Positions 29,583-30,880 of a stretch of DNA of 64,000 nucleotides are shown one piece after another. The position numbers and the translations under genes were made by a program. The stretch lies in the sequence record PQ249395, one strand, 5' to 3'. A model generated the notes under the pieces. That model was not told the DNA's origin and made no database searches. It saw nothing but the letters and a program-made list of their open reading frames with translations. This stretch comes from Escherichia phage Pu-Krd-SF1. Position 1 is the first letter of the stretch; each line of letters begins with the position of its first letter.

Positions 29583-29842
29583 CTTTTGATGAATTTAAAA
29601 ATGTTATGATGAGTCAGCATTTTGAATGTGAAGTAAAAGATGATATTGGTCATAAAGAAATTATTGAATACTGGTTTGAACCACTAGAAGTTGAAGATAA
29701 TTGTATTAAAAAAGTTACGGTCTGCACTGACTGGGCTGTATCTTTTAACTTCAACATTTTAGATAATGACACACCTAAATCATTACAAGATATGGCTGTA
29801 TCTTGTATTAAGGATGCATACTGTGAAGTTTTCGACATTTGA
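29579..29842 (+). CDS. Hypothetical protein (46.2 position)
   Basis: 87-aa ORF, ATGA overlap with gene 47 stop. Confidence 0.55.
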   Translation: MTFDEFKNVMMSQHFECEVKDDIGHKEIIEYWFEPLEVEDNCIKKVTVCTDWAVSFNFNILDNDTPKSLQDMAVSCIKDAYCEVFDI

Positions 29843-30029
29843 CATTAATGATGAATTCATAGCAAATATTGATTATACCGAAGAAGATTCTAGATATGTT
29901 GGAATAATTTATATTACATCAAAAACAGCGCAAGGTGTTGTTTGCATGGCTGAATTTGATGAATACTTTTTAGATTATGATGATATGATAGAATGGTCTA
30001 AAAGATACATTAAAAGGAATCTTTTGTGA
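29823..30029 (+). CDS. Hypothetical protein (46.1 position), GTG start
   Basis: GTG 29823 with AAGGA RBS; N-terminus VKFSTFDINDEF mirrors the start of the HNH gene at 30026. Confidence 0.5.
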   Translation: MKFSTFDINDEFIANIDYTEEDSRYVGIIYITSKTAQGVVCMAEFDEYFLDYDDMIEWSKRYIKRNLL

Positions 30030-30880
30030 AGAATTTTAAACTTGATATTAATGACGAATTTTTAATAAAGGAATTAGTTGAAAAATTAGCGTTGAGTGAA
30101 GAAGACGCCAAGTCTTACATTAATTTTATTTCTATGAATTCAACTGTTAAAACTCCAGGTAAAACGGAAGCACACCACGTGCTTCCTAAATCAATATTTC
30201 CTGAATATTTAAAATCTACATGGAATTTAGTTAATTTAAGTCATTTTAATCATTTTAAAGCGCACTTCTTATTAGCAAAAGGTAAAAATGGAAAAATGCT
30301 AAATGCTTTAAATAGAATGATGTCAGGAAAAACATATAAAAATTTATCTTTAGCCGAAGTTGATTTAATAGCTGCTGAATATAGTTTTATAAAACAAGAT
30401 GTAAGTGACACAATATCAAAAAGGCTTCAACAGTATTATTCAAATCCGCAAAATAGAAATGCTGCTAGAGAAAGGGCATTAAAATATTTTTCAGTAGCAA
30501 AAAATAGGAAAGATAACAAAGAAAGATTAAATAATTTTAAAACAAAACAAAAAATTTCAATGGCTTCAAGGGAATGGTTTAATAACGAAGAAAATAAAAT
30601 TAAACACCAAAAGGCTGTTCGTGCTGCTTTATCAAAACCTGAATATAAAATAGCTATATCAAATTCAGTAGCTGCTAGTTGGAAAAATCCGGAGATTAGA
30701 AAAGCTCATATAGCATCTCGACGAAAAGGCTATCATTGGGATAATAAAGATAAATTGTATGAATTGTGGATATCATATAATCGTCCTAAACATGTGATGT
30801 TTAGGAAAATGTTAGTTAAGAATGGATATCCAATAGAGGCTTCATTGCAGGCTTTAGTTAAAGAATTTTCTTCATTGTGA
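30026..30880 (+). CDS. HNH homing endonuclease (Mob-like)
   Basis: GTG 30026 with AAGGA RBS; HNH motif KTEAHHVLPKSIFPEY; basic C-terminal domain; 284 aa. Confidence 0.75.
   Translation: MKNFKLDINDEFLIKELVEKLALSEEDAKSYINFISMNSTVKTPGKTEAHHVLPKSIFPEYLKSTWNLVNLSHFNHFKAHFLLAKGKNGKMLNALNRMMSGKTYKNLSLAEVDLIAAEYSFIKQDVSDTISKRLQQYYSNPQNRNAARERALKYFSVAKNRKDNKERLNNFKTKQKISMASREWFNNEENKIKHQKAVRAALSKPEYKIAISNSVAASWKNPEIRKAHIASRRKGYHWDNKDKLYELWISYNRPKHVMFRKMLVKNGYPIEASLQALVKEFSSL

Follow-up and report, generated by a model that had tools for sequence, protein, structure and literature searches.

In a 64,000-nucleotide (nt) stretch of Escherichia phage Pu-Krd-SF1 (PQ249395; the window), the open reading frame (ORF) between genes 46.1 and 46 is probably a free-standing Mob-type HNH homing endonuclease gene whose illegitimate insertion into a T4-like genome took place in frame, behind codon 6 of gene 46. 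Comparison with T4, which lacks the HNH gene, establishes at the sequence level that the insert lies in frame inside gene 46, after codon 6, and that the HNH ORF uses the ribosome-binding site (RBS), GTG and first six codons of gene 46, along with its stop/start overlap with 46.1. The insert also supplies a substitute start and six codons, from which gp46 would be made as MKSFKL, not VKNFKL. Mob-like free-standing HNH homing endonucleases are a known kind of element, and this one is already annotated. The combination of start takeover, imported spare start and composite leader appears to be an undescribed variant, with no description in the papers searched. The features at the junctions are as follows.

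29823..30029, + strand: gene 46.1, 68 amino acids (aa), DUF5487 (Pfam PF17589, E 4.5e-50; annotated gp46.1 in T4 and PP01).
30014..30043, + strand: taken-over gene 46 start, AAGGA, 7 nt, GTG AAG AAT TTT AAA CTT (VKNFKL); the 30 nt are identical in T4, L010 and L012.
30026..30880, + strand: Mob-like HNH homing endonuclease ORF, 284 aa / 855 nt, intact (PHROG 655).
30044..30913, + strand: inserted block relative to T4, 870 bp = 290 codons (window/T4 junction comparison).
30881..30913, + strand: replacement gene 46 start, weak GGA RBS, ATG AAA TCA TTT AAA CTT (MKSFKL), carried at the 3' end of the insert.
30896..32578, + strand: gene 46, Rad50/SbcC-like recombination nuclease subunit, 560 aa (ORF list, relatives' annotations).

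In T4, 46.1 ends in a stop that overlaps the gene 46 GTG, and AAAAGGAATCTTTTGTGAAGAATTTTAAACTT is followed directly by AATAGAGTAAAATAT (AATAGAGTAAAATATAAAAATATAATG), so that the RBS and GTGAAGAATTTTAAACTT are the native start of gene 46. The window keeps these 32 nt; after the CTT of codon 6 comes GATATTAATGAC with the remainder of the HNH ORF, and 870 nt downstream the window reads ATGAAATCATTTAAACTT and then AATAGAGTAAAATAT (AATAGAGTAAAATATAAAAATATAATG). The TGA stop of 46.1 now overlaps the GTG of the HNH ORF (GTGA), and gene 46 restarts 15 nt past the HNH stop (TGA at 30878-30880).

What is duplicated across these junctions is the six-codon leader of gene 46, present as VKNFKL at 30026-30043 and as MKSFKL at 30896-30913. 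A direct-repeat search found TTTAAACTT exact in both leaders (30035-30043 and 30905-30913, spacing 870), while the two copies mismatch at 5 of 18 nt. Codons 1-6 of the replacement leader are 89% identical to those of Mosigvirus mobillu and of Gelderlandvirus SEA1, and 72% identical to those of T4. Its first 15 nt, ATGAAATCATTTAAA, also start gene 46 in mobillu, which lacks the HNH gene, and 16 of the 18 leader nt match there. Since the downstream leader is closer to the gene 46 start of another genus, it was imported with the element and not duplicated in situ.

A sequence-only reading of this stretch had placed the duplication elsewhere. It noted that the ORFs at 29823 and 30026 share a GTG AAG...DINDEF start, each behind AAGGA, and took this for a translation-initiation module repeated on either side of an ORF, as endonuclease-gene insertion or partial duplication might leave. 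The likeness itself is present as described. The 46.1 start at 29823 is GTG AAG TTT TCG ACA TTT GAC ATT AAT GAT GAA TTC and the HNH start at 30026 is GTG AAG AAT TTT AAA CTT GAT ATT AAT GAC GAA TTT, both having GTG AAG, 12 nt and then the DINDEF codons. AAGGA lies at 29810-29814, 8 nt ahead of the 46.1 GTG, and at 30014-30018, 7 nt ahead of the HNH GTG. The first 36 nt agree at 27 positions, and the direct-repeat search extends the likeness to a 45-nt repeat of 73% identity with a spacing of 203.

An initiation module duplicated by insertion or partial duplication, in the manner of a target-site duplication, is nonetheless very improbable as its source. Two similar starts 203 nt apart do flank an ORF, yet that ORF is 46.1, which is resident (HNH-less relatives have it too) and not the insert. 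In HNH-less T4 the RBS, GTGAAG and the next 12 nt stand unchanged as the start of gene 46; the RBS and GTGAAG likeness to 46.1 thus predates the insertion. The real terminal repeat of the insert is the gene 46 leader, whose divergent copies and imported downstream member are described above. Neither this divergence nor a DINDEF repeat that flanks a resident gene fits a transposon-type target-site duplication, and an HNH ORF that ends in TGA, followed by a gene 46 that restarts at ATG with a GGA site, does not fit an intein or group I intron. The earlier proposal was right that an endonuclease gene had inserted and left a real scar, and part of its duplication stands, as the 18 nt coding for DINDEF appear to be copied from 46.1. 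It misidentified the units, however, and overlooked the main duplication, that between the HNH and gene 46 starts.

The DINDEF repeat occupies two positions.

29841..29858, + strand: codons 7-12 of 46.1, GACATTAATGATGAATTC (DINDEF), the likely source copy, identical in HNH-less T4, L007 and L010.
30044..30061, + strand: first 18 nt of the insert, GATATTAATGACGAATTT (DINDEF), the likely copy of 46.1 codons 7-12, with two synonymous changes here.

These are the only two sites at which DINDEF occurs in the six-frame translation of the window. We set the chance background from 1.9e7 position pairs lying 100-400 nt apart within the window. An identity of 15/18, as in the window allele, occurs at a frequency of 5.8e-6 among these pairs, and 17/18 does not occur (0 in 1.9e7; chance <5e-8 per position pair). 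Other phages preserve the repeat better. The HNH gene of T6, PP01 and RB51 has GAC ATT AAT GAT GAA TTT (GACATTAATGATGAATTT); that of T2 begins the same stretch GAT ATT AAT GAT (one synonymous change) and that of the window GAT ATT AAT GAC (two). With the preceding TT, the T6 allele matches 46.1 exactly over 19 nt, and RB51, whose 46.1 has TTT, over 20 nt. Of 69 phage records that carry the HNH gene (HNH+), 51 have the T6-type 69-mer exactly, and the window type occurs in three records; on these alleles, the window holds a decayed version of the repeat.

Pure chance likeness between two AT-rich gene starts, in which lysine is a common second codon, scarcely enters into consideration. The window allele matches at just 15/18, but the background frequencies, the uniqueness of the hexapeptide in 64 kb, the shared register and the 19-20 exact nt of the majority allele all count against it. 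The comparison with HNH-less relatives that the sequence-only reading had proposed gives the same answer, as T4 and others keep DINDEF on 46.1. The repeat shared by 46.1 and the HNH gene is a real recombination scar.

Only the 18 nt coding for DINDEF appear to copy 46.1, and their position is the exact left edge of the insert. All the HNH-less Tequatroviruses examined have DINDEF in 46.1, except L012, which has DTNDEF, and in the sister genus (Gaprivervirus-type) 46.1 has the orthologous NLDDEF or NLGDEF with the same GATGAATT. DINDEF is thus a native feature of 46.1, and copying would have gone from 46.1 to the HNH gene. Most likely the DINDEF of the insert is a recombinational copy of 46.1 codons 7-12. 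The HNH protein itself suggests that its N-terminus is an add-on. This end is about ten residues longer than usual, the HH of the motif lying 49 residues in, where the family median is 39 (39 in the closest homologues of SEA1 type, 45 in F2), and residues 2-10 are matched in only 10-37% of 80 aligned homologues. An apparent homology between 46.1 and the HNH protein past codon 12 (BLASTP, 14/39 identities with gaps, E 5e-4) was rejected, the SEED..Y part being native to the HNH family (P0034: SEESLSKYINFV).

It could instead be that DINDEF is the endonuclease's own N-terminus (M-DINDEF-LIKEL...), that only the six gene 46 codons were captured, and that the identity with 46.1 reflects coincidence or later sharpening by short-patch gene conversion between two sequences, alike by chance, that lie 203 nt apart. 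Several distant homologues begin in a comparable way, with MDINFKS (P0015, Kha5h type), VDINIEN (P0070), MINKDEFL (P0076) and MVDIFKEFI (P0034), and M(x)DI occurs in about 7 of 151. A start at residue 7 would also put HH at about 44, a position within the range of the family (HH falls at 43 or beyond in 18% of it). DIN and DEF occur together in none of the 151, however, and the first core residues of the two closest homologues align to residues 11-13 of the window protein, not to residue 7. The 19-20 nt identity covers synonymous sites in the same register from the start codon, the HNH genes of F2 and the window each adjoin or replace the very 46.1 whose leader they carry, and gene conversion needs homology, which is absent outside the patch. 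We consider this explanation unlikely.

Likeness between adjacent 46.1 and gene 46 starts is also seen beyond the window. In the Gaprivervirus-type record L013 the 46.1 start ATGAAGACTTTT matches that of its own gene 46, GTGAAGACTTTT, at 11/12 nt (MKTFEF.. / VKTFKL..). TH40 (L019) has the same 46.1 start and a gene 46 start, GTGAAGAATTTT, that matches at 10/12. These neighbouring starts may exchange leaders repeatedly, or base composition may explain the likeness. The 11/12 nt in L013 hint faintly that the leader of 46.1 began as an old copy of that of gene 46; in other genera the match is weak.

The assignment of the inserted ORF to the HNH (beta-beta-alpha-metal) superfamily draws on the family alignment and on PHROG 655 and 12434. 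The protein matches PHROG 655, 'homing endonuclease', at E 7.8e-45. It carries the catalytic and metal-binding His-(His)...Asn...His arrangement as H50, H51, N67, H76 and H80 (nt 30173-30265), in columns that are 99-100% conserved among the 80 homologues. Homology to T4 MobA-E places it in the Mob-like family: tblastn aligns residues 47-281 with T4 MobD at 30% identity (E 2e-11), and its other matches include genes with the annotations mobE and Mob-like. Searches of Pfam, NCBIfam and PDB sequences with the protein gave no usable match.

The gene is free-standing and varies in presence among near-identical genomes, occurring in 69 of about 520 Tequatrovirus records with flanks 97-99% identical. 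An intact copy (284 aa) occurs in the window, in T6 and in PP01, and a frameshifted one in T2, RB51, RB68 and Ac3, which fits the usual decay of such elements. A published table lists one 'other HNH' gene each in T2, T6 and RB51 (Petrov et al. 2010, PMC2993671); this is presumably the same gene, whose existence is thus not new. According to that table it is the only homing endonuclease gene of T2 (PMC2993671). In T2 (PV958097.1, L015 1483-2335) a frameshift splits it into a 204-aa ORF and a remainder, so T2 may lack a functional homing endonuclease. At the other end of the gene, a 290-aa variant in Logan assemblies (P0168; window 30866-30899) ends ...KEFLHCEQLDTK with a stop that overlaps the gene 46 ATG (ATGA), and its C-terminus is as long as those of the homologues in F2 and SEA1. 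A derived 1-nt frameshift may account for the EFSSL* end seen in the window and T6.

Ac3 (OK040907.1) was considered as a diverged HNH allele (71.5% identity) and proved instead to be a synonymously recoded RB51 copy, and it was set aside. Positions 1-36000 of Ac3 (L014, L021) equal RB51 (FJ839693.1; L017, L022) base for base, except in three recoded blocks, at ~8943-9200 (dexA.1), 18275-18907 (61.2) and 31961-35226 (mobB-like ORF, gene 46, HNH pseudogene). In the HNH pseudogene the GTG of the start has become GTT, and codons have been exchanged for E. coli-like ones with no change of protein as far as the frameshift that Ac3 has in common with RB51. These blocks look synthetic or contaminated and not like natural divergence.

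Homologues with more than 40% identity are found only just upstream of gene 46, in F2 (YP_010068818; after 46.2) and in SEA1 (WKV23400; after 47). Both are 44% identical to the window protein, at 1e-58 against E 8e-20 for the next best. In CGG4-1, an HNH-less relative of SEA1, a 46.1 homologue stands in place of the HNH gene. F2 has no 46.1 homologue, and its HNH ORF shares its first seven codons, ATG included (ATGACGAAGACTGATTATGAAA), with the 46.1 homologue of mobillu and diverges after them. Endonucleases of this clade joined to a 46.1 leader therefore do exist, and F2 provides the precedent. F2 (L002 4976-5692) and RB51 (L022 31961-32674) also have a mobB-like ORF on the opposite strand directly after gene 46, so endonuclease genes can flank gene 46 on both sides; the window lacks this ORF and has 45.2 there, at 32634.

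Beyond the insert, the beginning of gene 46 differs with the presence of the HNH gene.

30914..30961, + strand: HNH-linked patch, gene 46 nt 19-66, candidate homing site or co-conversion tract (allele comparison).

Across Tequatrovirus, Mosigvirus and Gelderlandvirus, HNH+ and HNH- alleles of gene 46 are 73-77% identical over nt 19-66 and 94-99% identical downstream. The Tequatrovirus patch runs from exactly the insertion point (CTT -> CTA) to +46, and in this genus about the first 50 nt of gene 46 exist as three alleles. The HNH-linked allele is exact in 66 records (69 HNH+ records in total). The T4 type, in about 75 records, differs from it only by GGGATT for GGAGTT. The third type has 13 substitutions, occurs in 384 records and encodes RYQNIMSVGGNP, as in HNH-less mobillu. 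Within 1400 nt either side, the A/G at 30958-30959 (+45/+46) is the sole fixed difference between five HNH+ and five HNH- alleles. A homing endonuclease with short co-conversion tracts would be expected to leave such a pattern about the site that it recognises or cuts.

T4 has the HNH-linked patch but no HNH gene. Its sequence equals, bar 2 nt, the product of a deletion between the two TTTAAACTT copies of an HNH+ allele. The patch is near-identical in T6 and SEA1 over TTTAAACTTAATAGAGTAAAATAT...AATATAATGTC, although their proteins are only 44% identical. This suggests that the start of gene 46 in T4 carries a footprint of the HNH element.

We propose that the HNH element entered behind codon 6 of gene 46 illegitimately and in frame, for which two routes can be drawn. 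Along the first, the element would earlier have been fused to a 46.1 leader, as its F2 homologue still is (seven codons of a Mosigvirus 46.1 homologue), and the resulting 46.1(1-12)::HNH would then have been linked to a broken gene 46 through 2 nt of TT microhomology (...AAACTT / ...ACATTT). Along the second, a broken end in the gene 46 leader would mis-anneal on the similar 46.1 start, copy about 18 nt and switch to the donor. In a mixed infection the enzyme would then nick or cut HNH-less gene 46 alleles within the first ~50 nt, and repair would copy the HNH gene and, linked to it, 46 nt or more of gene 46.

Some observations weigh against this account. A Tequatrovirus-type 46.1(1-12)::HNH fusion (GTGAAGTTTTCGACATTTGACATTAATGATGAATTTTTAATAAAGG) was not found in the phage collection (searched by DNA and protein), in IMG/VR and JGI metagenomes (by protein patterns), or in JGI metagenomes and GTDB genomes with an exact 35-nt junction pattern. 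In the 90% protein cluster we read the N-termini of 7 of the 15 listed members; all complete ones are MKNFKLDINDEF, with no fusion. As no donor-type fusion was found, the two routes to the 18-nt copy are not told apart. The few distant homologues that resemble DINDEF at the N-terminus (MDINFKS, VDINIEN, MINKDEFL) mean that part of DINDEF could be native to the endonuclease. No Pfam HNH model matches the protein at E<=0.1. Homing is suggested by family membership and population patterns, and the A/G linkage at +45/+46 could simply reflect a distance of 46 nt from the HNH gene.

It is conceivable, though we lean the other way, that this HNH clade fuses in frame to the start and first codons of whichever resident gene receives it and so secures its expression. 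If this joint reading were right with all its corollaries, the N-terminus would be a layered record of past insertion sites (here six codons of 46 atop six of 46.1; in F2 seven of the 46.1 homologue). The 5' end of gene 46 in T4 would be the trace of an element copy that was lost or never completed, and the majority allele (RYQNIMSVGGNP, matching Mosigvirus at the protein level) would be the original state.

The window is from a T-even phage of the genus Tequatrovirus, T2/T6-like, and over 29400-31100 its identity is 100% with Escherichia phages Pu-Krd-SF6 and SF7 and 98-99% with T6, T2, PP01 and others. Two further genes precede 46.1.

28563-29582: gene 47 (ORF list and relatives' annotation).
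29579-29842: gene 46.2 (Pfam PF25721).

Past gene 46 the order is 45.2, rpbA, 45. Inside the insert, sigma-70-like promoters are as numerous as in shuffled sequences; no late promoter TATAAATA occurs in 28300-31300, and no terminator accompanies the insert. The HNH gene is presumably co-transcribed with 47-46. RNA folding is not significant at either start or junction (z-scores -0.13 and +0.35), values that rule out an RNA structure sequestering either start. Elsewhere, the window contains an 80-nt exact direct repeat (10281-10360 and 38783-38862) with a promoter-like GTTTACA...TATGGTACTATAC motif, and terminator-like GGGCTTCGGCCC hairpins with a UUCG loop after agt, before 47.1/47 and after 45 (25009, 28386, 33967).

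Among known systems close to the element are T4 MobA-MobE, which share its HH...N...H...H motif, a length of ~230-290 aa, a free-standing ORF between conserved genes and a sporadic occurrence in close relatives. MobD is its nearest T4 paralogue and MobE the characterised one. A start that overlaps the stop of the upstream gene is described for mobE and nrdA (PMC2988022), and the window HNH gene likewise overlaps 46.1. In contrast to the T4 Mobs, the window gene is just 30% identical to MobD, occupies a different locus (46.1/46) and is known from sequence alone, and its ORF opens with the RBS and six codons of the interrupted gene in place of its own or an absent translation initiation region.

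The F2 and SEA1 genes have the same position as the window gene, abut the start of gene 46 and accompany a diverged patch in its first ~50 nt, and F2 also has a captured leader at the ORF start (seven codons of the 46.1 homologue). Unlike the window gene, they stand in place of the 46.1 homologue, and their overlap with gene 46 is 14 nt. In the window 46.1 is kept, the leader is composite (six codons of 46 and six of 46.1), and gene 46 restarts 15 nt past the HNH stop. A free-standing HNH gene within the coding sequence of an essential gene has a parallel in Aeromonas phage Aeh1, where, as Friedrich et al. are said to have reported in 2007, mobE lies inside nrdA ('genes in pieces') and the two polypeptides reassemble into a functional product. 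Gene 46 of the window, by comparison, loses only six codons, a duplicate replaces them, and gp46 would remain a single chain.

SegF and SegG are GIY-YIG enzymes with experimentally mapped cleavage sites. Their intronless homing, with co-conversion of flanking markers, is cited in PMC2993671. The window shares with them a short block of linked polymorphism beside the endonuclease gene, in flanks otherwise well shuffled; its site is a candidate only.

Free-standing endonuclease genes need to be expressed without harm to adjoining essential genes, and the source of their translation signals has been largely unaddressed. Half of those in T4 have no discernible initiation region (2010 review, PMC2988022). 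The locus described here is one concrete solution legible in sequence, in which the start of the host gene is taken and a spare is brought for the host. Here, too, the first ~50 nt of the Rad50-like gene 46 stand out as a three-allele hot spot in T-even phages, and the HNH-linked patch as a candidate homing site for an uncharacterised enzyme of the classic phages T2 and T6.

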